From Amoebidium appalachense (Eukaryota > Protista > Ichthyosporea), in contig CAVNZM010000016.1 of assembly GCA_963693365.1 (NCBI GenBank), positions 334,095 through 398,094 on the forward strand: 64,000 nucleotides of DNA. The letters run 5' to 3'. The translations under genes were made by a program, and so were the position numbers. Of the stretch, positions 933 to 57,391 are shown one piece after another (within the stretch, counting starts at the first letter, position 1; each line of letters starts with the position of its first letter). Under the pieces are notes generated by a model. It worked only from the letters and a program-made list of their open reading frames with translations. It was not told the origin of the DNA and searched no databases.

Positions 933-1492
933 ATAGAGGTTTTATTTGTGGAATTTATTGACATAAATATTTTTCTGGGTAAACACGTAGGATGGGTGTT
1001 CGATATTGACATAACCATGTAGGCTTCGTTTCGTGTTTTAGCAGTTCGCGATTGGCCGCTCGCACACGGGCACCTATTAGCTAATCAAAACATCAGATTC
1101 CACATATCGCTAGACCGATTTTGATTGGTTCGATTCAGATTCACATATCACTGGATCGATTTTCAATTGGCTCAGGTCGGTAGGCTTAGGTATATAAGCA
1201 AGACAGTTTTCAGCAGATCAGCAAGCTACAAACACATCTTCTGTGTTGAGCACCTACAGCCCTTACGGCTATACATTTTCTTTTCACACTCCGTGACAAC
1301 TCTTGACACGAGCTTCTGTCACACCTTGACAATCGTGCCATCCTTGCAAGTTCAGCTTGCCCTCGTGTCCTCCTCGCAAGTTAGGCTTGCACTCCTGCCA
1401 GTTCCGTCCCGGTTAGGGCTAGTCGCCCTACAAGTTCCTCGACACTTCAAGAAGATTTCCTGACATGGCCCCTCACGCGCCGCGCCGCTGTG

Positions 1493-7054: not shown

Positions 7055-7244
7055 ACATGGCCCCTCACGCGCCGCGCCGCTGTGATCTAAGTCCCTACCA
7101 CTCGTCTAATTTCAAACCCCGTTTTCAATCCCGATGGCCTAGAATTTCACACCCCGCTTCGATCCGCATTGACTATCCTCGCTCATAGTCCTTGCCCGAT
7201 TGCCCTTCTGAGTATTCAAATACGGTACTCCAATCGCGTCGCTT

Positions 7245-7976
7245 ATGTTAAACCCAGTCAAAGCACCTTGTGCTTTCCTACTGTTCAGGAGTACTGACCC
7301 CAAGTCCCTGCCAGAACAGCTTACCGTGTTCAACCCGCCTCCTTCCCTGTTTTCCCACCCTGTTTCCCGCCATGTCTCCCCCCACCATGACTTCACTGTC
7401 GATGGATACCTCACATTCCATTGGTCTGCCCCGCATTCCAGCAGCATTTTTTCCTCAGATCACAAGGCCAGCCTCGTCGAGATCTCAGCTACCCCAAACC
7501 CTGCACGGCCCCAGTTCCCCTGCAGCTATTCCCCCCCTGTTGCCACCCGACCCCGGCCAGCTACACATGCTGCCAGGTCCGGTCGTTCCCATCCACGTTT
7601 CTGCCCAGCCAGCCTACCGTGCTGCCTGCCCATCCACGTTTCTGCCCAGCCAGCCTACCGTGCTGCCCGCCCCCGTTTCCAAAGCCCCTGGCCCGACCCA
7701 GTTAACCTTCTCCGTCCGGACTTACCTGCCTTTGACCCTGCCTCCGTCGTGCCTGATCCCAAAACCAATCCCGTCAAAGCCCCTCCTCCCCTCCCTGTTC
7801 CGGCTTTCCCAGTAACCCCCGAGCAGCAAGAACCCTCAGGCTCGACGCCCCTCCAAACGAATTTCAAATTACGCGACCTCCGCAACCAGCTGCCCAACGC
7901 TCCCGCGGGCACTGACGCGCCTCCGGCGGCCCCCACCACCACGGACCCTCCAAGCCACTCTCCCCTCTACCCCTGA
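7245..7976 (+). pseudogene. Pro-rich remnant, probably the decayed gag-like ORF of the Ngaro element
   Basis: Position after A1 once the nested insertion is removed; no diagnostic motif. Confidence 0.35.
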
Positions 7977-8215
7977 AGCCCCCCCTCAGGCCTGTCCCAT
8001 GTAGTACCCCAAGCCCGGCTGTGGTCTAAGACTTGATGGCTTCACACCGCCCCACAAGCCCGGCGGGGGACAAACCCCCAACCGCCCCGACCCGCACCCC
8101 GGCCTGGCAACACCGGCCCGATCGGTGGAGCTACCCGCCACGCACTACATGAATTTCCACATTTAAGGTCGGTCCTGCGCTAAGCAGCCCTGCCCCCTCT
8201 CCCACGTGTGCCCGC

Positions 8216-8822
8216 TGTCATGTGCTGAGCTGATTCGTATTAGTTTGCTTCTATAATTCGTGTTTTGGTGAGTGAATTTCGGGGGTTTTCTTGCATAGTG
8301 ATGCCGGGGTCTAAGTGGGGTATGAGGAGATTAATCAGTGGTATGGGGAGAACCTGATGCGGCGGCGGCTGATTGTTAAAGGTGCGCGCGTGCATGCACC
8401 ATGCCTCTGCGTACTCTCCATGTTAAATGTTGTATTGCTTCTTGCTGTGTGCTTGGCGAGACCCATGTTGCCTGCTCGCGTGTGTGTATGCTTATATGTA
8501 TTGTGAGTAAACGTGTGTACGTGTTGTAGTGCTGTAGGGGTGTCTGAGGTGGCGGTAGCCAATGGTGTGGAGTGCGTGTAGTCTGTGGGGGAGGGAGTGT
8601 TGTGATTGGCTGAATGTCACTGTGGTATTTGTCTGGCCAGTGGGCCGCGTGTCTGTGAAGTGTCTCGCGGGGTCGCGGGCTTTTGGAAGTTCTTCTCAGA
8701 ACACAAAAAACTCGCTTCCCACCCAACTCAAAGAAAAGTTTATACGTATACACGGTTTCGAGCCCCTTTAAGCGTGCAGATAGTTAGAGTAGTTCATATA
8801 CACTCTGTTTGTTGCCACGACA
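8216..8822. mobile_element. Solo LTR (607 bp)
   Basis: TGTCATG...CACGACA termini; 5-bp TSD CCCGC at 8211-8215 and 8823-8827. Confidence 0.8.
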
Positions 8823-8889
8823 CCCGCTCTGCTCTGGCACACACCCCCGCAAAGACTGCAAGCCTAATGCCTAGTCTACGCGCACACCC

Positions 8890-9116
8890 ACACACACAGA
8901 TAGAACATAGGGGCTAGGAGCTAGGATACACGGGTACAGGGACACGGAGCTCGGGAGCTCGGGTCACTAGGGCTAAGTACAAATTTTTGCAAGCCACCTA
9001 CGGCGCGCGCGCGCGCCACAGAATACATGTCCCTACACAAAGACGTTATTCTGGCCACTGCACATAATTTTACTCCCCACCCATCCCACGAGCCCCCCCC
9101 CTTACACTCACCCTAG

Positions 9117-9147
<31 letters not shown>

Positions 9148-9961
9148 TTCTAACTCTGTGTCCACCCGCATCCCCGCGTGCTCGGGCATCCCCTGCACAT
9201 GGCCCCGCTGTTCTGCCTGCAACCTCCCTCGGGCCCAGCTGCCCGCACACACAGATAGAACATAGGGGCTAGGTGCTAGGATACACGGGTACAGGGACAC
9301 GGAGCTCGGGAGCACGGGCCACTAGGGCTGAGTACAAATTTTTGCAGGCCACCTACGGCGCCCGCGCGCGCCACAGAATACATGTCCCTACACAAAGACG
9401 TTATTCTGGCCACTGCACATAATTTTACTCCCCACCCATTCCACGAGCCTCCCCCCCCCCCTTACACTCACCTAGCACTCCCTCCCCCCCCCCCCCCCCC
9501 CCCCCCTTCTAACTCTGTGTCCGCCCGCATCCCCGCGTGCTCGGGCATCCCCTGCACATGGCCCCGCTGTTCTGCCTGCAACCTCCCTCGGGCCCAGCTG
9601 CCCGCACACACAAGATAGAACATAGGGGCTAGGAGCTAGGATACACGGGTACAGGGACACGGAGCTCGGGAGCACGGGCCACTAGGGCTGAGTACAAATT
9701 TTTTTTGCAGGCCACCTACGGCGCCCGCGCGCGCCACAGAATACATGTCCCTACACAAAAGACGTTATTCTGGCCACTGCACATAATTTTACTCCCCACC
9801 CATCCCACGAGCCTCCCCCCCCCCCCCCCCCTTACACTCACCTAGCACTCCCTCCCCCCCCCCCTTCTAACTCTGGGTCCGCCCGCATCCCTGCGTGCTC
9901 GGGCATCCCCTGCACATGGCCCCGCTGCCCTGCCTGCAACCTCTCTCGGGCCCAGCTGCCC
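8890..9961. repeat. Tandem repeat, ~355-360-bp unit, 3 copies, inside the Ngaro element
   Basis: GATAGAACATAGGGGCTAGG recurs at 8899, 9254 and 9614; units differ mainly in poly-C length. Confidence 0.9.
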
Positions 9962-9985
9962 TACTCTAAACCCCCCGGGGCCCTG

Positions 9986-10022
<37 letters not shown>

Positions 10023-10053
10023 CTGCCGGGGTCTCCCCGAGGGTGCCCCACCC

Positions 10054-11330
10054 TTGCTAACCACACCTTCCCCCGAGGCTCAGACCCGGAGGCCCAGCCC
10101 CCCCTCGGCCACCAGCGCGGCCACCCTCTTCCCGGACCAATTCCTTGCTGAGTTTCCGGTCCTCCGTTCCTCCCCCATCGGCGCCGTTACTACAAAAACA
10201 AGCCCGGGACCCCAGCTCATTCTCGACGCAGGCCCCGGCTGCTACATGGCAGTGGCAGACGTGCAGGCTGCCTTCCGGCACATGCCCTCTCCCTTCCCCT
10301 GGGCTCAACCCCCCTCCCCTCCCCCCCCCCCCCGATCTTCCCTTCCGGAGCAACGCTGGCAGATTGGCCCCCCACTTTGCTCCGGCCGTGCTGCTTCGAG
10401 CCACCACTACCCTGCAGGAGTGCCAGGCCCTGAGTCTCAACCTCGACTCTCGGGCCTTCTACTCCCGGGTGCAGAAAGTGTTCATCGATTTTTGTGGCAT
10501 CTCGGCTGCCATCCTCCTCCGGGTCCTACCTCCCGGCCTCCCCACACACCGGGCAGCTCTTTCTTGCCTGGTGTGCCCAACAAGGGGTACAGGCCTCTTC
10601 CTTGGCCGGCTACAATTCGGCTATCACCAGACTCCACCTCGACATGGGACTTCCGGCTCCCTACCCCCACGACAAGTCTCTCGCCTGGTTCCTACAAGGG
10701 GTGGGCAGATGGCAGCTTTTCTCACAACATCCGACCCCGATCATCTCCCAGAGAACCCCTCCTGCCCTCCCACCTCGGCCTACTCCATGGCCAGTGCCCC
10801 ACCCAGGCCTCCTCAGCCAATCGCCGGCTTTGGACGGCCCTCATCGTCGGTTTTTGTGGTCTCCTCCGTTCGTGGGAATTTACCTCCAAGACCCTGACTT
10901 CCTTCGACCCGTCCCGTCACGTGAAATGGAAGGACATGACCTTCAGCTACACCCCCACCAGTACTTTGTCCCATGCCACCCTCCACCTGCCAACCTCCAA
11001 GATGGATGTACAGCCCTAAGTGTCAACGTCACTCTAGCTGCCCTGCCTCTCAACCACTTCTCCCCAGCCCATCTCCTCCGGCAGTTCCTGGATACGACAT
11101 CCGGTCAACCTGACGACCCCCTGTTCAGTCTCGGTGGCATTCCCTACACCAAGGGTGTTTTCTCTGACGACTTCCGTGCCCTCCTCTCCCGGGCGGGCCT
11201 CTCACCCTCCCGGTTTGCCGGCCACAGCCTCCGAATTGGGGGGGCCACAGCCCTGGCCGAGGCCGGGGTCGACGACTCCAGGATCCAACAACTTGGCAGA
11301 TGATCTTCCGACTGTTCCCTGATCTATACT
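10054..11330 (+). pseudogene. Ngaro RT fragment plus frameshifted tyrosine recombinase
   Basis: GPGCYMAVADVQAAFRHMP (RT); GFCGLLRSWEF, LHLPTSKMD, GHSLRIGGAT, IQQLGR*SS (YR, with Trp replaced by a stop). Confidence 0.85.
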
Positions 11331-13039
11331 CGACTTCGCCGGCCCCCATGGCTGCCACTAACAAACGTGTATTTGCCTCTATCCTTAAGTGAAACCTTTG
11401 GAGCAAGCATACTGCTCTCGTGCCGTGGTTTACAACCATTGCAGGTTCACTTTCGTCCAAGGGGATGTCCCCCTAGAGGCAACACACGTCCCGGAGTAGT
11501 TTTCATAGAGGTTTTATTTGTGGAATTTATTGACATAAATATTTTTCTGGGTAAACACGTAGGATGGGTGTTCGATATTGACATAACCATGTAGGCTTCG
11601 TTTCGTGTTTTAGCAGTTCGCGATTGGCCGCTCGCACACGGGCACCTATTAGCTAATCAAAACATCAGATTCCACATATCGCTAGACCGATTTTGATTGG
11701 TTCGATTCAGATTCACATATCACTGGATCGATTTTCAATTGGCTCAGGTCGGTAGGCTTAGGTATATAAGCAAGACAGTTTTCAGCAGATCAGCAAGCTA
11801 CAAACACATCTTCTGTGTTGAGCACCTACAGCCCTTACGGCTATACATTTTCTTTTCACCCACCCACCTACACCCACACTCACCCCCATTGATCCACACA
11901 TGCGTGCTGTTTTTTCACGGGGCGAAGACTTCCCCCGTTTTTTGGGCACAAGGACCTCACGGATCAATAAATTGATGACTGGGGGCTTGCCGTGGTTTAC
12001 AACCATTGCAGGTTCACTTTCGTCCAAGGGGATGTCCCCCTAGAGGCAACACACGTCCCGGAGTAGTTTTCATAGATCTGTATTCATGGAATCTGCCTGC
12101 GGCAGATAAATAGGTGAGAATCGAGCATAATAAATTAGACGTAGATTGACAGAACATGCAACTGTGTTTCTACCTCTCCACACTACCCTCTCTGTTAGTG
12201 CTGTGGCATCGTGCATTGCCCAGCACCACTCTGCACGTGTTTATGTCTGTTAGTTTAGTTGCCTGATCACCCACGTATACTCTCATTCATATGCATGTGT
12301 GCCCAAGTACATGTTAGTTGTAGTGTGTACACACTGCTAGTCAGGCGAGAATAGTAGGGACTTTTGCCGTAAGTCAGCACTTTTCTTGCAAGCTACACTG
12401 ATTCTGATGCTGAAAATGAAGAAAAACACGAACAAGTTACGAAGACACACCCACAAACGAAAACGAACACATGACTGCGAAAGTGCATGAAGAAGATCAC
12501 TTCGACCAGGCTGAGCCGAGCCCAAAACACCCGTATTTAACGAAATCCCCCTTGCAGGATCCCCTCTGGCGCCTGCAGGTGGACTGGCAGGCACGCCAAG
12601 TCGCCGGAGAGGCTCTGATGTCAGCACAGGCTCAGGAGGTAAGGCTGGGTCTATATTGAACAAGCACTTTGCAGAGCACGAAAACCGAGTATAAATAGCT
12701 ATAGTATATGTCATTGACATGTGTATTAATAGTGACAAGATGTGTAATTACTTGATTTATTTGAGTAAGAGTTCCTACTAGGCTTTAGTTAGGTCGGAAG
12801 TTGGAATGTGTATGCTCTGTTGGAATGTGTTTTTCTATCATCTGATAGAACCAATTGGTTCTCACCCTTTAGTTGAGATAAGATGATAAGTTGCAAGTAC
12901 AAAAAGAACCGAGAGCAGAATAAAAGATCAGTTGTTGTTTGAAATCTTTCAATGTGTCGTGAACAACACCGATTGCCCTCTCTTTATTGTGTTGGTCGTG
13001 TTTTACATGACACCTCTGTGCACTCTGCTCCCTTAGACC

Positions 13040-16171: not shown

Positions 16172-17319
16172 GCTTCCCTTTGCCCCCTCACCGCCCCGAT
16201 ACGTGTGGGAGCCGGGCATCGTCGTGGGTCCTCAAGACAGCGTCGAGGTGGTATGGCATGAATGTTTGTGGGGTGACTCTACCAAAGGTATGAATGGTGT
16301 GAATGTTTTGTGGTTGGGGGAGGTTCCCCAGCCACAAGTGGATGGTCTCAGTGTTTCTTGTCCCAACTGTTGGACATTGTGTTCATAGAAGCTAGTTCTA
16401 GTGCACGTTGTTCCTTCTGTAAGTCAGAAATGATTGCATCTTGTGAGGCCAACCTCTGCTCCAGTAGTTGGACTAGTTGCTGCAACTGTAAGTTGTCAGA
16501 CATAGTGTCGTGTATGATGGGTAACTAGTCTATGTGTTTTGTGCACTGGAAACGACAGTAGAAAAGTGTGAATCAAACGTTCTGCTTCCCATGTTTGTGA
16601 CATGGGAGGCACTGCTTTATATAGTCGTTGGCCACCTCATGGTGGCCTCGTGTGCACCCTGGTGGTGGGCCATGTACAGCATGGCCGAAAAGAGAGCACA
16701 ATGAAAACAAGTCGTTAAAGATATAAAAGTTAACTGTGCACGTTGAGTGGCTAGTTAACTTGCACTAAAGCACACAAATAAACGTGTTTAACACACCAAT
16801 TGCAGTTAAACGTAAATCTTGCTTCACACAACTAAAAATATTCTGAGAATATCCGGGAATAAAGCACACTACCACTCTAAGAATAGAATCCTGTGGCAAA
16901 TATAGACATGACATCATCTGAACCGGGAATAGCCGAAAAGAGAGCACAATTAGCACGTTGCTAGTGAAGCTCGTCATTGGTACAGTTTTGGCTCAAACAT
17001 ATAACTACCATATATGAATATGACCGTAAACAAAAGCTCTATGCACTCGAGTGAGTGTTGAAACAGTTATTCAATTGCTCAGAAACTTTCTCTAACAGAC
17101 ATTGCTAGCCGGGAGTACCAGTGTACTCCAACACCCCTACTCAATTGGATAATTGTGGTATGAATTAATGCAACTGAGCTCGAGTGCTTCAGGTGCACAA
17201 AATACAGACAATAAAGATTCCCCTACTCAATTTTAGTATGGTACACGTAGTTGCACAGTCGGATGCAACTCTCTCCCCCCCCCTGAAGTATGAGGGCGCA
17301 GTTGGTTGATGACGGGTGC

Positions 17320-18240
17320 TCAGCACATGTTGAGCATCCCCACGGCCTTGGTGAAGAAAGAGGCAGACAGGGCCTTGGTGAACATGTCGGCCTTGTTGTC
17401 AGCAGAAGCCACCGGGACCACAGTGATGTTGCCCAGCAGGTGATGTTCCTTGACGGAGCAGTAGCGGACGTCGATGTGCTTGGTCTTGGGCTTAACCCCC
17501 AGGGTGTCCAGCAGGGCCCGGGCAGACTCATTGTCCCCATGGATGGGCACCGGGGTGGGCTCATTGATAGGATTAAGGCCCAGGTCGTCCATCACATAGT
17601 TGAGCCATAGGGCCTCGTTCGTAGCAGCAGACATGGCCACAAATTCAGCCTCAGTGGAGCTGTGGGTGGTGATGGACTGGAGCCGAGACACCCAGGACAC
17701 AGGGGAGGAGTTGATGAAGAAGACATAGCCCGTGGTGGAGCGCCGGGTGTCGCGGTCCTCGGCGTAGTCGGAGTCGGAGTAGCCAACAAGGTTGGGGGGG
17801 CCGGGACGGTAGACAATACCCAGGTCGATGGTGGCCAGCAGGTAGCTTACAACTCTGGTAGCCATAGTCCAGTGGGTGACGGTGGGCGCATGAATGTGTC
17901 GAGTAAGGACTCCCAGAGCCTGGGAAATGTCGGGGCGGGTGGTACGCGCAATCCACAGCAGGGCACCGACCAGGCTGGCATAGTCCTCCTTCTTGCTGTA
18001 GGCTGGGGTCTTGTTGCTTTCACTGGCCTGGCCCGGGACGATGGGGGTCTTGGTGCCGGACATGTGGGTGAGACGAAAACGGGCAGCCAAGTCGATGATG
18101 TGTTGACGATGGCCCAGACGCAGAGACCCGTCCTCCAGCCAGGTAAGAGTGTGCCCGATGAGCAGGGTAGGACGACCCAGGTCCTTGGCAGAGAAACGAG
18201 CATCCAGCTTGGTGAAAAAATCGTCGATGAGCGCATCAGT
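17320..18240 (-). pseudogene. Minus-strand copia RT C-terminus and RNase H
   Basis: TRPDIS, YSDSDYA, SSTEAEF, GDNESA, KHIDVRY, ADMFTKAL. Confidence 0.9.
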
Positions 18241-21200
18241 TGTTGTAATACGTAGTATTTACATATGGTAAGATCTTCTCAGTTTGTGTTATGTTTCAGT
18301 TCATATGCTTAGTGTAAATGCCACACTCCTATTATGTAAAGTGTAGCATCGATCTCCGATATGCTTGTATACTTGTAATCGTGTTGTATCGGCATTAATT
18401 GTGTATTGTAATATCGATTAGAATATTTATATGTGTGTACACGGATCCACCCACTCAGGGAGAGACGTGTACATGTTCGTGTGTACATAAATATCTCTGG
18501 TTATAGTTATGCTATTACTATCTTGTTTGTTGATCTGTGTTCTCTTTTCCTTCCTCTTTCTCCTTCCTTATTTTCTTTTCTTTCTCTCCTTGTCTTCATG
18601 TGTATAATCGTATTTCTTTTCTACTAATATATGTTAGGTAGATTTGTGTTACTTAATACGTGTTCATTGGACGGTAACACACTTAGGCTACACTTAGAAT
18701 AGCATGTGTGTTTAGACTTCATTAATTCACTTTAGTTTTCATGTGTTGCCGGGCTTTATCCAATCATCAAGGTTAAGTGTGATATGTCTGAGTCTTTGCA
18801 GTATGTCATAGGTTAGAACTTCCTTGATGATGACACGAGTTGATCTTAACTAGTGTCTGTGTCCTATCGTGTACGTCTCCGCGTACCGGATCTCTCAGAA
18901 AGCAATTGGTTCTTAGTGATTGGTTTCTATTAGAGATAGATCTGATTTTCGACTGGTCGGAAATCATGTATGGATTGGACTTAGAGGAATTTCAGGTATT
19001 TATTCGAAGATCAGAATAAATTCAGTTCAGTCGTGTCTAAACATTGATGTCTGTTGTGTACACTGCTCCGATCGTTCCGTGTTTTGTTGTTGTGTGTGTC
19101 TGTGGTGTTTTCACACTGCACCACTGTGTCTCTGCTTACATCCTAAATACTTATAGAAATTAACAGGTTATGCAGCCCTTTTGCACGCTCCCTACACACA
19201 TCTAGAACTCGCGCTCGTTTTTCAATCATGGATCCAAACAAAACTGGCGTAAACAAAATCACCATGTGGAAAGGTGAAGGGAAGACTGGTCCCGATAGCA
19301 AAACTACCTATTTTCAATGGGAAATCATTTTTCTCGGCATGATGACCGGCACTAAAGGTGTCCGACTCGTGGATGTTGTCCTTGCTGACAACTACGTCCC
19401 CCCTACCACCGTCGCGGTTGACGGTGAACCCCCCTTCTATGGCTACGGCACTACCGCGGAACTCAAAGAGGCCCGCAATTGCCTCCTGCTCCATATGATA
19501 CAGAACATCGACCCTTCCGTCCTCACCACCGTTGCCCAGTACCGTATTGGCATGGACCCTGAACGGGCCATGTGGAAATTCCGTCAACACTATCTCCAAG
19601 GCAAACCCGATCAGATCCGCATCCTTCACCGTCAGTGGGATGCCTGTGCCCTTCAGCCCGGTGAATCATTCACCACCTACCTGAGCCGTCTGCAGACCAT
19701 CGTGTACCAGCTCCAGTCTCTCCAAGATGAGTCCATTCACTTCACTCGTCTAGCTGAGAAGTTCTTCAATGAACTCACCACCAGAGACGACCTCACCCCT
19801 GAGTTCAATCGTCTTATCGAAGACTATCACTTCGGTGATAAGCTATTCCCCGACTTCGAGTCCCTCCATAACCACGTCAAGGGCATCGAGTTACGTCAAG
19901 ACCTCAAGATGCAACTCCGGAACAACCGTGCCCACCGTGCCTCCAAGTCCAGCATGGCATTAAATGCCAGTGCTCCCCCCCGTGATCTTCCTCGCCGTGA
20001 CTTACGCACCCGACTTGACCGTACCTCTGGCACGGACCTCCGAACTCGTCTCTCCCGTCAGCACACCCGATCCCGTTCCCCCCACCGGCCTGCCTTCCGG
20101 TCCACGTCTCGTTCCCCCAGTCGTTCCCGTTTCTCGGGTTCCCGTCGTTCTGATTCCCCGGCTCGTTCTAACACCCCGTCCGTGAAAGAATGCTCCTACT
20201 GCCACGAGCCTGATCACACGATCATCGATTGCCCTGAGCCGAAATGCCGTATGTCCAGACACAACCGTTCCCGTCAAGGCAGTGAGAAATCTGTCTCCTT
20301 TGCTTTCTCGGCATACAATGCTAGCTCCGTCCCCGTGTCCTCCGACCCTGCCTGGGATTCCGGGTGCAACATGACTGTTTGACCCACCCGTGAGTTCTTC
20401 CATGACCTCACTCCCCTTCCGACACCGACTCCCGTTGCTGCCTTCAATGGCACCCCCGTCTTGGCCACTCACACCGGCCATATCGTCATCAACACCACCA
20501 CCGACCATGGCACTACCACCCTAACCATTGAAGCCTACTACACCCCGTCTGGCCAAGCCTTCCTCATTTCAACATCCCAAGCTGCTGCCGAATACATCAA
20601 GGGTGATTTGAACGATGCCTCCACTCCGTCATTCCTCTTCGACCGACTCACCGGCCGTCATCTCGTCAACCTCCGTCTACACAACGGTCTGTATTACTTC
20701 AAGGACTACACCATTCAACCACACACTCGTCCTGTGGCTCTGGCTGCCACTACCAGTGTTAACCCATCCATCTGGCACCATCGTCTGGGGCACCGAGCTA
20801 TGACCAGCATCAAGGACATGGTGAAACACGACCTTGTTATTGGTCTCCCCTCCTCTGTCCTCGCCTGTGATGTTCCTGATTGTCATGGCTGCATTATGGG
20901 TAAGACCACCAAGGCTCCGTTCAGGGGTGACCGTCCTCACTCCAACATCCCCGGTCATGAATGGCATTGGGATTTTTTTGAGCCTACCACAACATCGTAC
21001 GGAGGTTCCAAGGTTGCTCTCGTCACTGTCTGCCGTGCCTCTGGCCTCGTCAAGATCTACCCGATGGCCGACCGTACCACCACCCTGGATATTCTCACAG
21101 CTCACACCAACCTCGTTGCCACCCATGCCCCCTCCAAAGTTGGTGTTTACCACTTCGACTCCGGCTCTGAGTTCACCTCCAAGGATACCCGTGCTTTTTG

Positions 21201-24200
21201 CCTCTCCCAGGGCATCAAGGCCAGCTATGCTCCGGTGGACTGCCCTCAACTGAACGGCTATGTTGAACGACGTATGCGGTTCCTCCAAGAGATTGTCCGT
21301 TGCCTCCTCCATCAAGTCCAAGATCAGTCTCTGTCTCCCAAACTGTGGGCTGAGGCCCTCCAACATGCCGCCTACATCATCAACGTCACCCCGTCCACGA
21401 CTGCCAATGGTCGTACACCATTCGAGGTTTTCTACGGTGTCAAGCCCGACATCTCCGAGCTCAAAGTGTTCGGTTGCCCTGCCTACACTCACGTGCCAGC
21501 CTCTAAACGGAACAAGCTGGCCCCCACCGTCAAACTCGGCATGTATATCGGCTATGATCTTCAATCACACTGCCACCGGATCTTCAATGCCACCACCCAT
21601 CGTGTCGGCCTCTTCCGTGATGTGATTTTCGACGAATCAGCTTATCTCCCGTCCGACATTCCATCAACCCTTCCGACCCCCGACACCACTGCTACCTCGA
21701 CCACCCCACCCCCCACAGTTGACACTGAAGATGATGTTTGTCTGGTGTACTCTGGCCCCCCTCCTGCCATCGTCGTTCCCCCGACACCCCCCCCCCACCG
21801 GCCCCCCTGCCCCCGTGCCCGTCCAGCCTGCCGACCCTCATCCTGGCCCTGGCAACGTCACACCCATCCGACCCGGCTCCCCCGACAACTTCCACTCGGC
21901 CCCGTCCAGCCCGGAGGTTGCCCCCCCTGCACTTCCGAACTTCCAAGTTCCCCCCCCACCGTCTCCACCTACCCCGGTTCCTGCACCCCGTCGTTCTGCC
22001 CGTCTCCAGGGCAAGGTTGGACTTCAAGCCACCACCACCCTGCCAGTCCCCCCGGTCCCCCCATCAACATCGACCAACTACCCAAACTTGTCCGTCAACT
22101 CTGTTCCGGACCCAATGGTGATCAGGTCAAGTCAGCCCTGACTGCTGAGTATCAAGCCTTCGTCGACAAAGACATCTTTGAACTTGTTGACCCTCCCCCT
22201 GGTGCTAACATCGTCGGCTTCAAGTGGATTGTCTCCGAGAAAACTCTCAACTCGGCTGGTGACACCAAGATCAAGGCACGTGGTGTTGCTCAAGGCTTCA
22301 GTCAGCAATACGGTGTTGACTATGAGTTGATTGAGAGCCCTGTCATCCGTCCGGCTGCTCTCCGTGCCATCCTAGCTCTGGCCGTTGTTGAAGGTCATGA
22401 CATACATCAACTCGACGTGTCTACGGCCTTTCTCAACAGCCCACTCACCGAGACCATCTACATGAAACAACCCCCGGGATTCATCACCATGGCCACACTT
22501 GGCAAGGTCTGGAGACTCAAGAAAGCCCTGTACGGCCTCAAGCAAGCCTCCAAGGCTTGGTACGACTTCCTCGACGGCATTCTTCTTGCCCATGGCCTGA
22601 CCCGTACTAAGACCGACCCGTGCATCTACCTCCGGTTCTTCCCCAACAACGATGTGGTACGGGCTGGTAACTACGTCGATGACTCCACCATCACCAACAC
22701 CCGGGGTTCTACTGCTGCCAGTGACCTGGCTGCCCACATCAGCAAGATGGCCAGCTGTCGTATGAGTCCATTTGACCGTATGCTCGGTGTTGATTTTAAT
22801 CACTCTGATCCCCATCACCTCCACATGCACCAGAGGTCTTACATCAGGGATATCATCCACGACTTCAACCTCACCGATGCCAAGTCCAAGTCTACCCCCA
22901 TCCCTGCAGGCACCACCGTCTCCCTGGCTGATTGCCCCCCCCAACCGTTCACCGTGCCCTACCGTGAGTTACTCGGCCGTCTCCTCTGGGTGGCACGGTG
23001 CACACGTCCCGACATTGCCTATGCCATCGGCTTCCTTGGTCGGTTCAGCACCAACCCCGGCAAGACTCACTGGGACCTTCTCCGTCGTGTGGCCCGGTAC
23101 CTGCTCGGCACCATTGACCTTGGCATTGACTACAAGTACTCGGCCACCCAGTCCCCCATACTCGAATGCTACACGGATGCTGACTTTGCTGGTTGTGCCG
23201 ACAGCAAGAAGTCTACCACCGGCTACATTATCGTGTTTGCTGGTATGCCCGTCATCTGGTACTCCAAGCTCCAGCCCATCACGGCCACCAGCACCACTGA
23301 AGCTGAGCTGATTGCTCTCAATGCTGGCACCCAAGAAGTTGCTTGGGTCCGTGACCTCTTCAAGGAACTCGGCTGTCCCATGCTTGCTCCGACTCCGGTG
23401 TACTGTGACAACCAGTCGACCATTGCCATCGTCAACTCCACCGGCATCAAGCACCGTACCAAACACATTGCCGTCCGGTATCACAACACCAAGGACTACA
23501 TTGCCAGTGGGGACGTGGTTGTCCACTACGTTGAGTCAGCCCACAACTTAGCTGACATACTCACCAAACCCCTCCCCGGCCCGAGTCATGTCCACCATCG
23601 TGCTCGACTTTGTTTACCGGATATTGTGGATTGACCCGACCTACTTCAAGAGTGATTTTCTCATGTGTACTACTTACTTTATCAACATCATTATATCATA
23701 TGTATTGCCTTTGTGGGTATGCCCACTTAGGGTTTATATATAAGGTTTGACCTGTACCATCACTCTACTCTATCTTTCACTGGTTTAAAACCCAGTTAAT
23801 CAAACACCGCCTATACACGTTATATATATTCGTTGTTTTTGCCCCGGTTCCCTTCCCCCCCCTCCCCCCCCCCCCTTCCCCCCCCCCCCTTCCCCCCCCC
23901 CCCCTTCCCCCCCCCCCTCCCCCCCCCCCTTCTCCCCCCCCCCCCCCCCCCCCCCCCGGAAAAGTACACACTTTAATTTTTTTTTTTTCCGTTTCTGTTC
24001 TCAAGTGGGGAGATTTCACTAGTTCAGTGGGGATATGATAACACAAACTTCAAAGTCTTAAGTGGGGATGTTGTAATACGTAGTATTTACATATGGTAAG
24101 ATCTTCTCAGTTTGTGTTATGTTTCAGTTCATATGCTTAGTGTAAATGCCACACTCCTATTATGTAAAGTGTAGCATCGATCTCCGATATGCTTGTATAC

Positions 24201-24993
24201 TTGTAATCGTGTTGTATCGGCATTAATTGTGTATTGTAATATCGATTAGAATATTTATATGTGTGTACACGGATCCACCCACTCAGGGAGAGACGTGTAC
24301 ATGTTCGTGTGTACATAAATATCTCTGGTTATAGTTATGCTATTACTATCTTGTTTGTTGATCTGTGTTCTCTTTTCCTTCCTCTTTCTCCTTCCTTATT
24401 TTCTTTTCTTTCTCTCCTTGTCTTCATGTGTATAATCGTATTTCTTTTCTACTAATATATGTTAGGTAGATTTGTGTTACTTAATACGTGTTCATTGGAC
24501 GGTAACACACTTAGGCTACACTTAGCATAGCATGTGTGTTTAGACTTCATTAATTCACTTTAGTTTTCATGTGTTGCCGGGCTTTATCCAATCATCAAGG
24601 TTAAGTGTGATATGTCTGAGTCTTTGCAGTATGTCATAGGTTAGAACTTCCTTGATGATGACACGAGTTGATCTTAACTAGTGTCTGTGTCCTATCGTGT
24701 ACGTCTCCGCGTACCGGATCTCTCAGAAAGCAATTGGTTCTTAGTGATTGGTTTCTATTAGAGATAGATCTGATTTTCGACTGGTCGGAAATCATGTATG
24801 GATTGGACTTAGAGGAATTTCAGGTATTTATTCGAAGATCAGAATAAATTCAGTTCAGTCGTGTCTAAACATTGATGTCTGTTGTGTACACTGCTCCGAT
24901 CGTTCCGTGTTTTGTTGTTGTGTGTGTCTGTGGTGTTTTCACACTGCACCACTGTGTCTCTGCTTACATCCTAAATACTTATAGAAATTAACA
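18241..24993 (+). mobile_element. Young full-length Ty1/copia element
   Basis: 925-bp LTRs 18241-19165 and 24069-24993 (one mismatch seen); TSD TCAGT; PBS-like GGTTATGCAGCCC; PPT AGTGGGGA. Confidence 0.96.
19228..23634 (+). CDS. Copia gag-pol with one in-frame TGA at 20380-20382
   Basis: Zn knuckle CSYCHEPDHTIIDC; protease WDSG; WHHRLGH; integrase D..D..E; RT DVSTAFLN, LKKALYGLKQ, YVDD; RH ADILTKPL. Both ORF segments share a frame. Confidence 0.9.
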
Positions 24994-25809
24994 TCAGTGG
25001 CGGCCGTCACGGTGAAGTCATCCACGTAGGCAGCAAGGGCAATAAACGTTGGGGTCCCGGCATTCTTGATGAACAGGCACGGGTCAGCAGCACTCACAAT
25101 GAAGCCTTGGTCGAGGAGATGGTCACGGAGGGCCTCATACCACTGGCGCGGTGCCTGTTTTAGGCCGTAGAGCGCCTTGTGGAGCAAGCCGACAGCATGG
25201 GGGGCCGAGGGGTTGACGAAGCCAGGGGGCTGCTCAATGTAGATGGTCTCGTTGACGGTGCCGTTGAGGAATGCTGTGTTGACGTCGATGTGGCGCAGAG
25301 GCAGACCTTGGGCCACGGAGGTAGCCAAAACCAGCCGGATGGTAGCCAGCGCAGCCACAGGTGACTCGGTGACGAAATAGTCCTGGCCAGGCTGCTGGTA
25401 GTTGCCCCGGGCCACAAGCCGGGCCTTGAAAGCAGTGACGTTGCCGACGTTGTCCTGCTTGACCGTAAAGACCCAGCCGACCGGAATGACAGTGGAGCCA
25501 TCCTCTGGACGGGGCACAAGGGTGAAGGTGCCGTTGTCTTCCAGGGCCTTGAGCTCACGGTGTGCAGCCTCCTCCCATTTCAGACGCTGGGGACTCTTGA
25601 GTGCAGCCCGGACAGTCTTGGGGACAACAATGGTGGAAGCCTTGATGGGTGTTGATGCAGGAGCCGTAGCCTGGGGGGCAAGGGGGGCCGTAGCAGCAGC
25701 CACGTTGGCAGTCGGGCCTCGACGTTGGTCGTTGTACACAGCGCCACTACGGGTCGTCCGGGGGAGCCGATGTGCAGGCTCGGGCAGGATCGGAATGTCC
25801 AATTGATCA
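24994..25809 (-). pseudogene. Minus-strand copia RT N-terminal part
   Basis: KARLVARG, DVNTAFLNG, LHKALYGLKQAPRQW, YVDD. Confidence 0.9.
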
Positions 25810-25893
25810 CTCGGTGTTGGAAGATGGTATCGTTATCCAGTCCGATCGCATGAATCAGATCATGATCGGCTGGTGGCCTGCGAGATCTTAACC

Positions 25894-25966
25894 GATCTCG
25901 TAGCTCAGTTGGTAGAGCACTCGACCGGAGATAGAGGGGTCGCGGGTTCAAATCCCGTCGGGATCA
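25894..25966 (+). tRNA. tRNA-like gene in the TRIM LTR (Phe-like body, GGA at the anticodon position)
   Basis: 73-nt cloverleaf: acceptor GATCTCG/CGGGATC, box A TAGCTCAGTTGG, box B GGTTCAAATCC, loop CCGGAGA; followed by TTTTT. Confidence 0.85.
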
Positions 25967-26263
25967 TCTTTTTCTCATCCTCTTCTCGCTGGGGTAAAAG
26001 CCAGCACGCCTTTACTGGCGTCATCACAACCATCGGCAGTGGTTAGGTTGTGATCTCAAGGCTAGCAAGATCGCTAGTCTCTGCACCAGGACAAAATCCA
26101 AAATGGTAGCATGAACAGGGGTTCAGTGGGGACTGAGGGGGCAGTCCACCCTAACCTGATTCTGCGATTCGTCCTGAGTGGGGATGTTGGAAGATGGTAT
26201 CGTTATCCAGTCCGATCGCATGAATCAGATCATGATCGGCTGGTGGCCTGCGAGATCTTAACC

Positions 26264-26336
26264 GATCTCGTAGCTCAGTTGGTAGAGCACTCGACCGGAG
26301 ATAGAGGGGTCGCGGGTTCAAATCCCGTCGGGATCA
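26264..26336 (+). tRNA. Second identical tRNA-like copy in the other TRIM LTR
   Basis: Same sequence as 25894-25966. Confidence 0.85.
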
Positions 26337-26478
26337 TCTTTTTCTCATCCTCTTCTCGCTGGGGTAAAAGCCAGCACGCCTTTACTGGCGTCATCACAAC
26401 CATCGGCAGTGGTTAGGTTGTGATCTCAAGGCTAGCAAGATCGCTAGTCTCTGCACCAGGACAAAATCCAATACTCGG

Positions 26479-28898
26479 CGCTGTCCCATTGGCTGACAGA
26501 CGAGACGAATCAGATTGCTGATCATTCCGGACGATGTGATTGGCTGGCTGATTTGACGAATCAGATGACTCCAAAAAATGATGAATTGCCGGTGCGGTCG
26601 ACCAATCAGATGGGACATCACGGAGGGGGTGCAGAATAGCAGCCTCGTCGAACTGCACGTCACGGCTGACGGTCATCTTGTGTGCTGCTGGAATCCAGAC
26701 CTTGTAGCCCTTGATGTTAGGAGGGTAGCCCACGAAGATGCCCTTGACGGCACGAGGCGCCAGTTTCGGTGTATCCTGTTGATGGACGTAGCAGGGAGAG
26801 CCCCAGACACGGAGCCGGCTGTAGTCGGGAGGAATGCCGGTCCACAGCAGGGCGGGAGACGATTGGCTGCCGGTGGCTCGCGACGGGAGCATGTTGCGTA
26901 TAAAAGCCGCGGTCACAGCTGCCTCGGCCCAGAATCCCACCGGAAGGCCGGACTGCTGCAGGAGTGCCCGAACCATGTCGAGGAGGGTCCGGTTCAGTCG
27001 TTCGGCAGTCCCATTCTGTTGAGGAGAGCCGGTGGTAGTGATCTGATGGCGAATGCCATGCTCACGGTTGTAGTCCCCGAAGGCCGTGCCCATGTACTCG
27101 CCCCCCCGTCGGACTGAAACACCTGCATGGGAACACCGTGTTGGGTAACCGCCGCCTTGTGGTACGTCACATATGCAGCCAGTGTGTCCGACTTCTTGAC
27201 GAGGGGCACGGCCGTGGTGTGGCCGGTGAATTCGTCGTGGAACGTCGCCAAGTACTGAGCACCACCGATCGCGGGAGGGAAGGGGCCGCTGATGTCGCTG
27301 TGAACCTTGGCTAGGACCCGGGGAGCTTGGCTAGTTGATTCGGAGAAGGCAACACGGTGGGCTTTGCCGAGGGCACAGGGCTCACACACACCCGGAGACT
27401 TGGCACCGCCACCCACCAACAGGCCTGCAGACTTGATGACCGAGCGTACAGCGTCAATGCCAGCATGGCCCAGACGGTAGTGCCACGTGTTGAGGTCGGC
27501 AGTAACCTTGAGGATACGCGGAGCAGTGGTGGTTTGGGCGTCCGGGGTTGTGTCCGCGGGCAGAAGAGACACCGCCATGTGGTACAGCTTGGTGCCGACA
27601 GCCGAGCCGGTGGCCAGAATTTGATCGCCGTAGCACAACTTAACGCCGCCGCGGGTGTCAAAGCGGGGTAAAACACCGTTGGTAGTTGCCGTGAACACAC
27701 TGATGAGAGTGTCGGGGATGGAGGGCACGTAGAGTACATCCGTCAGCTGATGCACCGCAGTAACGCCGTCGATGGTGCTGGAAAAGAACACGTCGCCCAC
27801 CCCAAGCACTGCACATGCACCCTTGTCGGCTACTTGGACCGTGGAGTAAGGCGCCGCACGCATGTTGATGAACACATCGGGCCGGGGGCACACATGGTCA
27901 GTGGCTCCAGAGTCGAGGAGCACCTTGTTGGTGCCACAGTCGTTGCTAGACATGAGGAAAGCCCGGGGAGCGGCAGCCCCCCCCTTGCACTGTGCCGTAG
28001 TGTGGGTAGTAGAGGCAGGGTGGTTGATGCAGGACCCAGGCGGGAGGGGACCACCCTTAGGTTTGCGGCCGTTGGCACGGTTGCCCCCCTTGCACATGGC
28101 GGTAGTGTGACTGGTAGACAGTGGGTGGTTGACGCAGGAACCCTTGGGGTAGGTGCTGGCACGGTTGTTGCCAGAGTTGCTGTGTTGGCCGTTGCCGTTG
28201 GGGCACTGAGACTTGATGTGGCCTGGTTTGCCGCAGCCGTGGCAGATGACAGGTTGAGGAGCCCGTGTGGTGAAGGCGGCCGGCCCGGAGCTGGTAGTCA
28301 CACGTGCACGTGGGTGGCTGGTCTCATATGCCCGTAGCTGTTGGAGGAGGCCCATCACGGTAGGCTTGGGTGTCATCTTGTAGGCAATTACAGGCATTTC
28401 GTAGTAAGGCACCTTGCCGAGGTCGTTGGTGAGCTTGGTCAGCACTTGAGCATCACCAATTTGTGTGCCGTAATCGGCCAGGCGTCGCACGTAGCCGCGG
28501 AGTTTCATGGCGTATTTCGTCGCGGTGTCCGTAGGTTCAGGCGTAGAATTCATGTACAGCCCGATAAGGTCGTACTGATTGGCCTCAGATTGCTCCAGGT
28601 AGTGGGCAGATAGGGCCGACCATATCTCCGCAGGTGTGGTGGTGCGTGTTAACCCTAGGATACAACGCACGTCAACCGAGAGTGCTTGCCACAGGTAGGA
28701 ACGGGCAGTGTCGACCTGTTCACGGGTAGCCGGGTGCTCCGTACTGGGCGCGATGGTGTGGAGAAGACCAGCACCAGAAAGCTGGACATACATGGTTTCG
28801 GCCCATGTGTGGTAGTCCGTGCCTGAATCATTATCAATGCCAGTGAAGAGAGGGATGTCGACCTTGAACTTGATGGAATCATTACGTGAGGGGCCCAT
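26479..28898 (-). pseudogene. Minus-strand copia gag-protease-integrase (frameshift in a G run near 27105)
   Basis: CHGCGKPGHIKSQC, LDSGATDH, WHYRLGH, VHSD, SDGG, PQQNGTAERLNRTL, FWAEA. Confidence 0.9.
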
Positions 28899-28914
28899 AA
28901 CCCTGTTGGACATT

Positions 28915-29942
28915 TGTTGGAAGTAGAGTCCGCTGTGACTAGGGTCGTCGTGGCGCGCTTGGGCGCTGACCCGTTTTTTACTGCTTTCAGTGTGTTAACT
29001 CCATGACTGAACTCCATGACTTAACTCCATGACTTAACTCCATGACTGCACCTGGCAGAGACGTGGCTTATATACCCGTGGGGCAGCAGTCTGGAATGTA
29101 ATCCGGATGCCAGGTGCTAATCGGATTGGTTACTTTCATTTAGAGATCTCTGGGACCAGTGAACCAATCGTTTGCAGTCAAAACACAATTGGCAACATTC
29201 CTCAACTATGCAGATGTGCATGTGGTGATCGAGTGTCAGCGTGTGTCTGTGTACACGGAACCAATTGTAAAGCTAACATACACATATTGTGGAGTGAGCG
29301 TAAGTCTGCACTCCAACACCCCTACCCAATTGGAGAAGTGTACACACCACTAGAGAAGAGAGAGTGAGTGTGGCTGCTTGCAGGGTAGACCGGGGTGTGC
29401 ATTCCACTGTGGTGCGTGCCCCGCCAATGAAGTGGAATACTTGACGTTGATGTCGCAGGCTGCTGCGGATGGAGTTTGTGGAAGCGAAAGTCTCTAATGA
29501 AGTTAGAGGCCGCGGTGTCGTGTCTGGGCCCATAACCCTGTTGGAAGTAGAGTCCGCTGTGACTAGGGTCGTCGTGGCGCGCTTGGGCGCTGACCCGTTT
29601 TTTACTGCTTTCAGTGTGTTAACTCCATGACTGAACTCCATGACTTAACTCCATGACTTAACTCCATGACTGCACCTGGCAGAGACGTGGCTTATATACC
29701 CGTGGGGCAGCAGTCTGGAATGTAATCCGGATGCCAGGTGCTAATCGGATTGGTTACTTTCATTTAGAGATCTCTGGGACCAGTGAACCAATCGTTTGCA
29801 GTCAAAACACAATTGGCAACATTCCTCAACTATGCAGATGTGCATGTGGTGATCGAGTGTCAGCGTGTGTCTGTGTACACGGAACCAATTGTAAAGCTAA
29901 CATACACATATTGTGGAGTGAGCGTAAGTCTGCACTCCAACA
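28915..29942 (-). mobile_element. 1028-bp TRIM inserted in the copia 5' LTR
   Basis: 404-bp LTRs 28915-29318 and 29539-29942; TSD ACATT; PBS GGTTATGGGCCCAG; PPT GGGTAGGGG. Confidence 0.93.
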
Positions 29943-30972
29943 ACATTGTGTTCATAGAAGCTAGTTCTAGTGCACGTTGTTCCTTCTGTAAGTCAGAAAT
30001 GATTGCATCTTGTGAGGCCAACCTCTGCTCCAGTAGTTGGACTAGTTGCTGCAACTGTAAGTTGTCAGACATAGTGTCGTGTATGATGGGTAACTAGTCT
30101 ATGTGTTTTGTGCACTGGAAACGACAGTAGAAAAGTGTAAATCAAACGTTCTGCTTCCCATGTTTGTGACATGGGAGGCACTGCTTTATATAGTCGTTGG
30201 CCACCTCATGGTGGCCTCGTGTGCACCCTGGTGGTGGGCCATGTACAGCATGGCCGAAAAGAGAGCACAATGAAAACAAGTCGTTAAAGATATAAAAGTT
30301 AACTGTGCACGTTGAGTGGCTAGTTAACTTGCACTAAAGCACACAAATAAACGTGTTTAACACACCAATTGCAGTTAAACGTAAATCTTGCTTCACACAA
30401 CTAAAAATATTCTGAGAATATCCGGGAATAAAGCACACTACCACTCTAAGAATAGAATCCTGTGGCAAATATAGACATGACATCATCTGAACCGGGAATA
30501 GCCGAAAAGAGAGCACAATTAGCACGTTGCTAGTGAAGCTCGTCATTGGTACAGTTTTGGCTCAAACATATAACTACCATATATGAATATGACCGTAAAC
30601 AAAAGCTCTATGCACTCGAGTGAGTGTTGAAACAGTTATTCAATTGCTCAGAAACTTTCTCTAACAGACATTGCTAGCCGGGAGTACCAGTGTACTCCAA
30701 CATGCCAACCCGGTGTTTATTCTAACCACACCGGAGGGGGTTTCTGTGCCATTGTTTCCGGGAGGGGGGGGACACACACGAGTAAAGGGGGAAGGGGGGG
30801 GAAGGCACAGACACGTAGAAACACACCACCACAACAACATACGACGGTTGCAGACACACCTACACCCACACACACACCCACACATACACCAAACACACAC
30901 ACACCACCCACCCACACACCACACACACACACTCCACCACCACCCACATCACATACACACCCCACCCCACCC

Positions 30973-41779: not shown

Positions 41780-46146
<4,367 letters not shown>

Positions 46147-46950
46147 ACACCCGTATTTGTTCCCAGGAACTGCATACCAGCAGCTGGAATGCGGGAACAC
46201 GGTATCACTGGAGGTGCTGCCCGGATTCCGCTTGAACTTCGAAGGGTGACAGACGAGCATGTGATTGGATGGCAAAGCCAATGAGCGCTTTGATTGGGGG
46301 AAAGGCACCAATCATATTTGTGATTGGCACTCCAATTTGTAGGGTTTCAAATGTAGTCATATGGGGCCATCCGATAGTGCACTTCAGAAAGACGTGAAAA
46401 TAGTTCTGGAGTTTTTGGATTTGGAAGTGACAAGGTTTGATGGTGGCGCTTATAGGTTAGCTTTATGAAAATACAAAGCATTTATTTTTCATTATGTATA
46501 TTTCATTATTGACTTTTTTCTTTTTTGGAATCCAGCAAGCTTGGGGCACCATACGTTTCTATGCACACCCATGGCTCTGACGCAAATCCGTGGGAATCAT
46601 TGAAATGATTCCTAACCCCTTGCTAATGGGTTCTCTTTAGATCACACATTTTTCATTTTACAAGGGGGAGTCGAGAAAATGAGCATTTACATTTGATTGA
46701 TTGATTCCTACATAGCAAAATTTGCTTACCTTGTGATTGTCCCCCTTTTCGAAAGGCCTTCCCTTTTCCTGGGGGGGATGTGCTGTTTATTGCGAACTTC
46801 TTTCGGACTAAGCAACAAACTGAACGTGCAGCCATCACCGTAGTGCGCCCTGGATTCGACCCGTATTTGTTCCCGGGAACTGCATTCCAGCAGCTGGAAT
46901 GCGGGAACACGGTATCACTGAGGTGCTGCCCGGATTCCGCTTGAACTTCG

Positions 46951-47337
46951 ATTGGGATATTCGGGTTGGTTGTAAGGTTTTCGGGTCGGGCCGAAGGCCC
47001 TAACGGGCCGCAGGCCCGCTTATTGGGCCGCTAGGCCCTAGGCCGCTAGGCCGGGGCCCTGGGGACCGGGGGCCTCCCCACCCCCGCGAGCCACCCCGGC
47101 CCGGCCCGGCCCCCCGGGGCCCAGGGGGGGGGGGGTTAGCAGCCGCTGCTAACCCCCCCCCCCCTGGGCCCCGGGGGGCCGGGCCGGGCCGGGGTGGCTC
47201 GCGGGGGTGGGGAGGCCCCCGGTCCCCAGGGCCCCGGCCTAGCGGCCTAGGGCCTAGCGGCCCAATAAGCGGGCCTGCGGCCCGTTAGGGCCTTCGGCCC
47301 GACCCGAAAACCTTACAACCAACCCGAATATCCCAAT
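46951..47337. repeat. Perfect 387-bp GC-rich palindrome
   Basis: 193-bp arms ATTGGGATATTCGGG...CCCGAATATCCCAAT centred on a single C at 47144. Confidence 0.95.
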
Positions 47338-57338: not shown

Positions 57339-57391
57339 GGGGGGGGGGGGGGGGGGGGGGCCCACATTCATTTTCTACCCTTTCTTTAGCA

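Follow-up and report, generated by a model that had tools for sequence, protein, structure and literature searches.

A tRNA-bearing TRIM nested in a Copia element

A small non-coding retroelement of the TRIM type lies near the middle of the window, by which we mean the whole 64-kb stretch of DNA that was analysed. Its features are as follows.

25810..25814, +, 5' copy of the target site duplication (TSD), CTCGG, 5 bp; public contigs hold an empty site with a single CTCGG
25815..26473, +, TRIM, 659 bp, non-coding, two LTRs and an internal part
25815..26103, +, 5' LTR, 289 bp, TGTTGGA..TCCAAAA
25832..25877, +, predicted long hairpin within U3
25878..25903, +, 10-bp "decoy" hairpin (predicted), whose arm 25878-87 pairs with tRNA nucleotides 1-10
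25894..25966, +, tRNA-like unit 1, 73 nt (ARAGORN, Rfam), with A box 25901-12, B box 25945-55 and anticodon loop 25925-31
25925..25928, +, CCGG, self-complementary, at tRNA positions 32-35 (C33 replaces U33); candidate dimerisation loop
25969..25973, +, T5 run, 2 nt 3' of tRNA-like unit 1; candidate weak Pol III terminator, to be read through
25988..26080, +, four predicted local hairpins within U5
26104..26184, +, internal region, 81 bp, non-coding
26104..26111, +, primer binding site (PBS) TGGTAGCA, 8 nt, of the 3'-end tRNA-iMet type by comparison with fungal Helenus
26176..26184, +, polypurine tract (PPT) GAGTGGGGA
26185..26473, +, 3' LTR, 289 bp, TGTTGGA..TCCAATA
26264..26336, +, tRNA-like unit 2 (ARAGORN, Rfam), with decoy hairpin 26248-73 and CCGG 26295-98
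26339..26343, +, second T5 run, 3' of tRNA-like unit 2; candidate end point for the full-length transcript
26474..26478, +, 3' copy of the TSD, CTCGG

The initial annotation had described a 659-bp TRIM with TSD, PBS and PPT. This anatomy was confirmed, and the 5-bp TSD is matched by empty sites with a single CTCGG. The LTR ends that it had given, TG..AA and TG..TA, were also correct: the two LTRs differ only at position 288, the second-last base, which is A in the 5' LTR and T in the 3' LTR. U3 contributes 79 bp before the tRNA-like unit and U5 about 130 bp. The T5 runs at 25969-73 and 26339-43 are the only runs of at least four T on the + strand of the TRIM. Neither TATA nor the poly(A) signal AATAAA occurs in its LTR. 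An Rfam scan to E 10 returned no ribozyme family, such as the LTR hammerhead of a retrozyme.

The TRIM interrupts the pol frame of a larger Copia element, and the frames are in phase on both sides of it. Two further elements share this host.

16368..30702, -, host Copia element; the TRIM lies antisense in pol, between integrase and reverse transcriptase (RT)
18241-24993, second Copia, inside the host Copia, TSD TCAGT
28915-29942, -, second non-autonomous LTR element, in the host Copia's LTR, 404+220+404 bp, TSD ACATT

Three young insertions (the second Copia, the tRNA TRIM and the second TRIM) are thus nested in one Copia. The second TRIM has identical LTRs, received no tRNA call, and shares with the host Copia an anticodon-loop PBS, the PPT and the LTR ends; from these sequence characters it looks like the host Copia's ordinary TRIM. 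The host Copia has the TSD CCAAC (16363-16367; 30703-30709), set off by two extra bases at the 30702 end. A protein search with the Copia RT region gave a best identity of about 40% among the matches listed, which mixed plants, algae, fungi, an oomycete and arthropods.

Elsewhere the window holds the following features.

933-12076, RT element with ORF 2420-6016 and split direct repeats (933-1287/11505-11859 and 1493-1954/6400-6861)
46951-47337, near-perfect palindrome, 387 bp, two 193-nt arms, 100% complementary, with a 1-nt spacer
54575-55864, cysteine-repeat protein
58491-60017, DUF5906 primase-helicase
61829-62740, patatin, best protein match 46% among the matches listed
62737-63534, Fic

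The RT element at 933-12076 is possibly of the tyrosine-recombinase type; its distant protein matches include dinoflagellate RT-methyltransferase proteins, and a rearranged relative lies at 43016-46147. The second RT has a best protein match of 36% over its length among the matches listed. Each of the three protein searches (patatin, Copia RT region, second RT) took in at most about 8000 candidates, so nearer relatives may exist; the distant matches suggest a host eukaryote with little representation in protein collections and speak, without proving it, against the well-sampled Helenus hosts. The region 52000-64000 is a cluster of intronless ORFs, C2H2 zinc fingers among them, of the kind expected where a large DNA virus or a Polinton-like element has inserted.

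The tRNA-like unit and its Helenus relatives

The initial annotation saw a complete tRNA gene in each LTR. ARAGORN makes two tRNA calls in the 64-kb window, both within the TRIM's LTRs (Ser, GGA), and each unit matches Rfam RF00005 at 57.4 bits (gathering score 29, E 1.3e-11). In fold predictions of the mature 73-mer, all four stems are possible (acceptor 0.97, D 1.00, T 0.89). Might the LTR carry a working tRNA, serving as a Ser-GGA decoder or as a primer for the element's own reverse transcription? The foldable stems, the Rfam score and a terminator at the usual place would fit. A functional tRNA-Ser has U33, a paired anticodon stem, a long variable arm and G73. Against this standard, the unit has C at position 33, a G30-A40 mismatch in the anticodon stem, a 5-nt variable loop and A73, all at odds with a serine tRNA. 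Nor does it suit the primer role: the TRIM contains no complement of at least 5 bases to the start of its PBS, so the unit cannot prime the TRIM's own PBS, and the unit's 3' end plus CCA matches TGGT only. The leader predicted below would also block the cloverleaf. We consider a working tRNA very improbable, and Kojima (PMC10886601) concludes likewise for most Helenus families. What stands of the earlier description is a unit of full length and cloverleaf shape, with A and B boxes and T5 behind it; "complete" was an overstatement, given C33, G30-A40 and a variable loop of just 5 nt alongside a Ser anticodon, and the unit is probably not a working tRNA. Its boxes (TAGCT..TGG and GGTTC) fit the motifs TRGCY, YGG and GGTTC of PMC10886601.

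To which group does such an element belong? Kojima 2024 (Biology 13:119, PMC10886601) defines Helenus (TRIMp3) as the tRNA-bearing group, known from fungi, animals and Selaginella, and Ajax as the 5S-bearing group, known from two nemerteans. The initial annotation had swapped these names. It was right that Cassandra carries 5S-derived sequence, but it attributed 5S to Helenus as well and tRNA to Ajax. Its proposal of an Ajax-like TRIM does not survive either: the Rfam scan to E 10 detected no 5S, returning the tRNA and chance matches only. In contrast, every testable defining feature of Helenus is present: two LTRs, no coding capacity, a length below about 1 kb, A and B boxes in both LTRs, PBS and PPT, a 5-bp TSD, an interspersed tRNA-bearing family, and a tRNA-like unit that is not the primer. 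The element is almost certainly of the Helenus type. These characters mark it as a new Helenus family, which resembles the fungal ones in PBS, TSD, ends and T-run; three motifs specific to it gave 0 hits each in Data S1 of PMC10886601. The accessible text of PMC12859917 mentions Helenus in one sentence.

For comparison with the fungal families we tallied T-runs and anticodon-loop palindromes by eye in supplement parts 1 and 4 of PMC10886601; the other parts could shift these counts. T4 or T5 stands just 3' of the tRNA-like unit in 53 of the 56 published fungal LTRs: T4 in all 26 complete LTRs of part 1 (one truncated entry was excluded), and T4 or T5 in 27/30 of part 4, one of these runs lying in the opening bases of the internal part as listed. 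Such T-runs are thus not peculiar to our element, and neither are its non-CA ends, as one published family, Helenus-3_MLP, has the identical TGTTGGA..TCCAATA ends.

Fungal Helenus in these parts share with our element a non-coding TRIM below 1 kb, a tRNA-like unit with A and B boxes in both LTRs, a 5-bp TSD, the PBS TGGTAGCA, a G-rich PPT, a T-run just 3' of the tRNA, a palindromic anticodon loop, occasional non-CA ends, and a unit not complementary to its own PBS. Examples that match in the PBS are Helenus-5_PSt, Helenus-1_AmAr and Helenus-1_CCin, and Helenus-1_CroRib has a CCGG loop too. Our element differs in its longer LTR (289 bp, against a fungal maximum of 284 in Table S1), in its T5 in place of the usual T4, in a decoy hairpin that spans the whole 5' acceptor strand, and in having the tRNA near the LTR start, after 79 bp of U3, whereas most fungal families have it near the end.

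Animal and Selaginella Helenus have the same architecture. Within the accessible entries, Helenus-1_SaGl has CCGG at the same loop position, and Helenus-1_SMo (Selaginella) combines a palindromic loop with a 5-bp TSD and an iMet-type PBS, as here. Several wasp families show, by eye, a strong hairpin over the first 2-4 bases of the tRNA-like unit together with T5-T6 runs, whereas the fish and coelacanth families seen have no T-run. Animal families further differ in 4-bp TSDs, in primers of the Lys, Leu, His, Arg and other types, and in their dependence on Gypsy. Cassandra likewise has a small-RNA-derived Pol III promoter and terminator in both LTRs, but the module is 5S rRNA (type 1 promoter) rather than tRNA (type 2), and its hosts are vascular plants (PMC7215508, in the part available; PMC10886601). 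Ajax, also a TRIM, resembles our element in its 5-bp TSD and in the Pol III-type module of its LTR; it differs in its partial 5S sequence, its tRNA-Leu primer and its occurrence in two nemerteans (PMC10886601).

Copies, mobility and the likely partner

Among 24 public sequencing runs listed, 20 contain the stretch, from six studies (five rows may be the window's own source), and four organism labels hold half or more of the stretch's words. We examined six runs (X1, X3, X12, X13, X15 and X19), using contigs only and comparing each with the stretch carrying one LTR; X20, at a share of 0.06, does not enter the evidence. The 370-nt unit of LTR plus internal region, including the tRNA, is present in 6/6, with 0-1 differences on the main contigs. 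No joint that skips the tRNA was seen in these runs, with the proviso that contigs drop rare variants; the family variants found, one 5-nt deletion and one 4-nt insertion, both lie outside the tRNA.

The element has also moved. An empty site with a single CTCGG occurs in X1, X13, X15 and X19, although these may be paralogous host-Copia copies rather than this locus, and other insertion flanks occur in X1, X13 and X15. The left flank in X13 ends in ATCAC and the right flank in X15 begins with ATCAC, which fits a second 5-bp TSD. In X15 the ratio of LTR to internal depth is about 2.1 (4540/2128), fitting mostly two-LTR copies; private variants near depth 70-77 in that run would suggest about 30 copies, but contig depth is no copy number. 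Hence the family is young, interspersed and tRNA-bearing throughout, within the limit that contigs drop rare variants. Circular 400-nt contigs (X1, X3, X12, X13) were not taken as evidence for tandem arrays or circles, since LTR-internal-LTR with its low-depth flanks pruned gives rise to the same contigs.

Perhaps a tRNA gene or SINE landed once in an ordinary TRIM's LTR and has since been a passive passenger? The initial annotation had named this alternative, to be recognised by most members lacking the tRNA; all six runs carry the unit, as described above. A SINE insertion is also what Kojima (PMC10886601) proposes as the origin of the whole group. For this family, passive carriage is nevertheless quite improbable. 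In addition to the missing tRNA-skipping joint and the placement of both indels outside the tRNA, neither a TSD nor an A-tail surrounds the unit, and its stems and boxes are intact, yet its anticodon loop is altered in the way seen in distant Helenus families.

At the LTR/PBS junction, the main contig has AA in every run that lists it, and 3' LTRs end in TA (this copy and one in X15) or AA (two in X15, by inference), four ends in all. Recurrent change beside the primer, or selection by integrase, could explain this TA/AA variation at 26472-26473 as against AA at 26102-26103. In X3, at place 26084, a 62-nt contig of depth 63 shares 26055-26084 (a U5 hairpin) and then diverges; it is a related element or a chimeric junction.

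When a 26-nt stretch of the tRNA was used to scan metagenomes, at least 120 loci came up; none among the matches listed resembled the TRIM outside the tRNA, and these loci were drawn on for the null sets below. Five loci from a viral-contig scan with the first 18 bases of the LTR matched over 18-21 bases only and were dismissed as chance.

Which autonomous element mobilises the TRIM? Its PBS is found in neither Copia of the window, the host Copia using an anticodon-loop PBS. The last 8 bases of the PPT plus TGTTG equal the PPT/LTR junction of the neighbouring second Copia (18241-24993) at 24061-73 (13 nt). In addition, the 12-mer 26121-32 recurs in that Copia's 3' untranslated part at 24022-33, a match that arises by chance in 55/4796 random 450-nt windows. 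Our best guess for the partner is a relative of the neighbouring Copia with a 3'-end iMet PBS. In X15, a loose end (place 26105) matches window 25048-25076 in reverse complement, from which we infer another tRNA TRIM copy in the RT region of the same Copia family. There is some hint that the tRNA TRIM is targeted to these Copia clusters.

Transcription, leader and anticodon loop

The initial annotation asked how a full-length transcript can be made when T5 directly follows the tRNA. The question is a real one; it applies to the whole group and is not addressed in PMC10886601, where Pol III transcription of Helenus is likewise a reading from sequence. By its boxes, the tRNA-like unit is likely to act as an internal promoter that drives the element by Pol III. 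Most Pol III starts lie 18-20 nt ahead of the A box (PMC4937561, accessible part), and G25882 offers the only pyrimidine-purine step at that distance. How firmly would T5 stop the polymerase? For yeast in vitro, the available part of bioRxiv 2021.08.27.457903 reports no release at T4, intermediate release at T5 and efficient release at T6. It also reports that weak terminators gain strength from a hairpin or acceptor stem within 7 nt, and that RNA structure blocks the loading of Sen1, a fail-safe helicase. The available part of PMC4937561 adds that read-through of tRNA terminators is common in vivo and that T4 suffices in humans. By analogy T5 may be a sub-optimal terminator here, on a strength scale that comes from yeast and may not be the host's, given that T4 suffices in humans. 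The spread among Helenus families, with T5-T6 in several from wasps and no T-run in those seen from fish and coelacanth, is a further point against this reading. We reason that a T-run of intermediate strength would suit an element that has to pass the first copy and possibly stop at the second. A stop at the second T5 would not be strictly needed, because a longer 3' end merely lengthens the repeat. No further T4 lies between the two terminators, but it is absent in 1587/2000 shuffles too, so its absence is no signal. A parallel exists in Cassandra, for which the available literature reports transcripts running from the unit of the 5' LTR to that of the 3' LTR, with inner LTRs read through.

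Contig depth offers a weak hint of transcription. X19, a run guessed to be RNA, has depth 1837 on the unit against 6.4 on the host Copia, and X12, also guessed RNA, has 105 on the unit with the host Copia absent, whereas X1, X13 and X15 show similar depth on both; depth is a poor measure of expression. The X19 contig spans T5 and the LTR/PBS junction. The contrast between RNA and DNA is not clean, however, as X3, guessed to be DNA, also shows the unit without the Copia flank.

Alternatively, Pol II could make the genomic RNA, from a U3 promoter or by read-in from neighbouring elements, leaving the tRNA-like unit to produce a short side RNA only or to serve as a TFIIIC-bound insulator or enhancer. 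Pol II would ignore T5, and 79 bp of U3 lie ahead of the tRNA. The whole unit is assembled in X12 and X19, and such libraries are often poly(A)-selected (the type is off record here); furthermore, multi-unit transcripts of Cassandra arrays are reported in mRNA and EST data (PMC7215508, in the part available). On the other side, the LTR has no TATA or poly(A) signal, this copy is antisense to the host Copia, and the element's size is within the Pol III range (PMC10886601). In the accessible entries, moreover, the LTRs of Helenus-2_TeGr and Helenus-1_MLe begin a few bases before the tRNA-like unit, which leaves no space for a Pol II promoter. On balance we hold the Pol II explanation to be rather unlikely, and Pol III read-through to be the probable source of genomic RNA.

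The predicted leader may bear on read-through. In fold predictions, the 10 bases 25878-87 pair with tRNA nucleotides 1-10 over a 6-nt loop. This pairing competes with the acceptor stem, and the likely Pol III start at G25882 falls inside the hairpin. The predicted acceptor-stem probability is 0.91-0.97 for leaders of 0-8 nt, 0.03 at 12 nt and 0.00 at 14-20 nt; hence a start at G25882, which gives a 12-nt leader, lowers it from 0.97 to 0.03. The decoy of the 3' LTR copy has a predicted probability of 1.0. None of 104 microbial tRNA genes reaches 7 bp (the longest has 6 bp; these controls are not eukaryotic), and a stem of at least 10 bp arises in 7/5000 U3 shuffles and 15/20000 random 30-mers of the window. 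The whole unit is rich in hairpins (z -3.4), so the decoy may be merely one of many. Family copies are near-identical, and for that reason offer no covariation evidence. We saw, by eye, no comparable arm in the fungal LTRs looked at, and partial hairpin overlaps with the tRNA start in wasps and one oyster family only, among the entries seen. In many animal Helenus LTRs among these entries a strong hairpin, judged by eye, abuts the start of the unit or overlaps it, and PMC10886601 does not mention hairpins there. In the model, the decoy would weaken termination and would shield the repeat ends from RNase P and Z; it would weaken the second terminator as well, which counts against it. A function for the decoy is possible, though on present modelling somewhat doubtful.

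Loop positions 32-35 of the unit are CCGG. By eye, a 4-nt palindrome occurs in 48 of the 56 published fungal LTRs of the two supplement parts. In part 1 a strict palindrome stands at position 32 in 19/26 (13 CATG, 5 CTAG, 1 GTAC), with a palindrome at 33 in six and none in one; in part 4 it stands at 32 in 18/30 (13 CTAG, 4 CATG, 1 CCGG), with five at 33, one at 34, three wobble-only and three without. Loop numbering was counted from the D stem by eye and may be off by one base in degenerate arms. Three more agaric families, Selaginella and several oysters (one with CCGG) also fit among the entries seen, while the exceptions are many of the wasp families, some of those from bivalves and those of sturgeon, and the fish CATG lies further 3'. 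As null expectations, 0/118 microbial tRNAs (with a shared D arm and mostly of five isotypes) and 16/128 combinations of YU plus anticodon have a palindrome at 32 or 33. Three points count against a role of the palindrome as a signal: the relatedness of the published families, the fact that tRNAs with AGN anticodons naturally have a CTAG loop, and CpG deamination, which can link CCGG, CTGG and CTAG without selection. In the predicted full-length RNA, CCGG is mostly paired, with 0.17-0.5 unpaired per base, as compared with 0.1-0.9 in the short leader form.

The accessible part of PMC6844567 describes Ty1 RNA as dimerising through palindromes, with the proposed kissing-loop step not confirmed, which makes a dimerisation role of the loop plausible. 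That the anticodon loop is a dimerisation signal we put forward only tentatively. PMC10886601 makes no mention of palindromes, dimerisation, kissing loops, self-complementarity, hairpins, read-through or RNase P. Neither a palindromic Helenus loop nor the decoy hairpin was found in print within the literature covered, to which subscription journals and Repbase reports did not belong. Taken jointly, loop and leader would make the Helenus tRNA a re-purposed RNA module, a dimerising loop plus a Pol III leader acting as a switch. The loop would be C-N-N'-G, with TA, AT or CG as alternative middle pairs in fungi, an oyster and this host; the leader, in this family, would fold back on the acceptor strand and so switch between a short tRNA-like RNA and a read-through genomic RNA. 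We offer this joint reading as a speculative one.

The anatomy, the TSD, the empty sites, several insertion flanks and the near-identical copies are direct observations. The explanation that we favour overall, and think fairly probable, is a young multi-copy Helenus (TRIMp3) TRIM with a likely Pol III promoter, likely mobilised by Copia. In the 5' LTR, TFIIIC would bind both boxes, A and B, and Pol III would start near G25882, 19 nt before the A box. The first T5 would, as a sub-optimal terminator, let a fraction of polymerases pass. Pairing of the 12-nt leader with the 5' strand of the tRNA is predicted to prevent the acceptor stem; since that stem would strengthen a weak terminator and invite cleavage by RNase P and Z, the pairing would favour read-through. 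The RNA would cover U5, PBS, PPT, U3 and the second tRNA-like unit, ending at the second T5 or beyond. At about 460 nt, it would carry about 90 nt repeated at both ends, sufficient for strand transfer. Host tRNA-iMet would prime at the 8-nt PBS, and a Copia particle would provide RT and integrase (5-bp TSD). In the most speculative step, the self-complementary anticodon loop would aid RNA dimerisation for packaging.

With this TRIM the Helenus group, whose 2024 description drew on sequence alone, gains a further family, with a host that is probably a little-sampled eukaryote. If the loop reading is true, it would explain why the surplus "tRNA genes" of rust fungi have mostly N-G-N anticodons (Thr, Ser, Ala, Pro). 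A dimerisation signal would also explain why the whole cloverleaf is kept, where a SINE needs just two boxes, and would give a simple rule for weeding such copies from tRNA gene annotations. Young, nearly invariant and possibly well transcribed, the TRIM may allow the first experimental test of a Pol III-driven Helenus, and as a test case it could show how a Pol III retroelement passes its own terminator.
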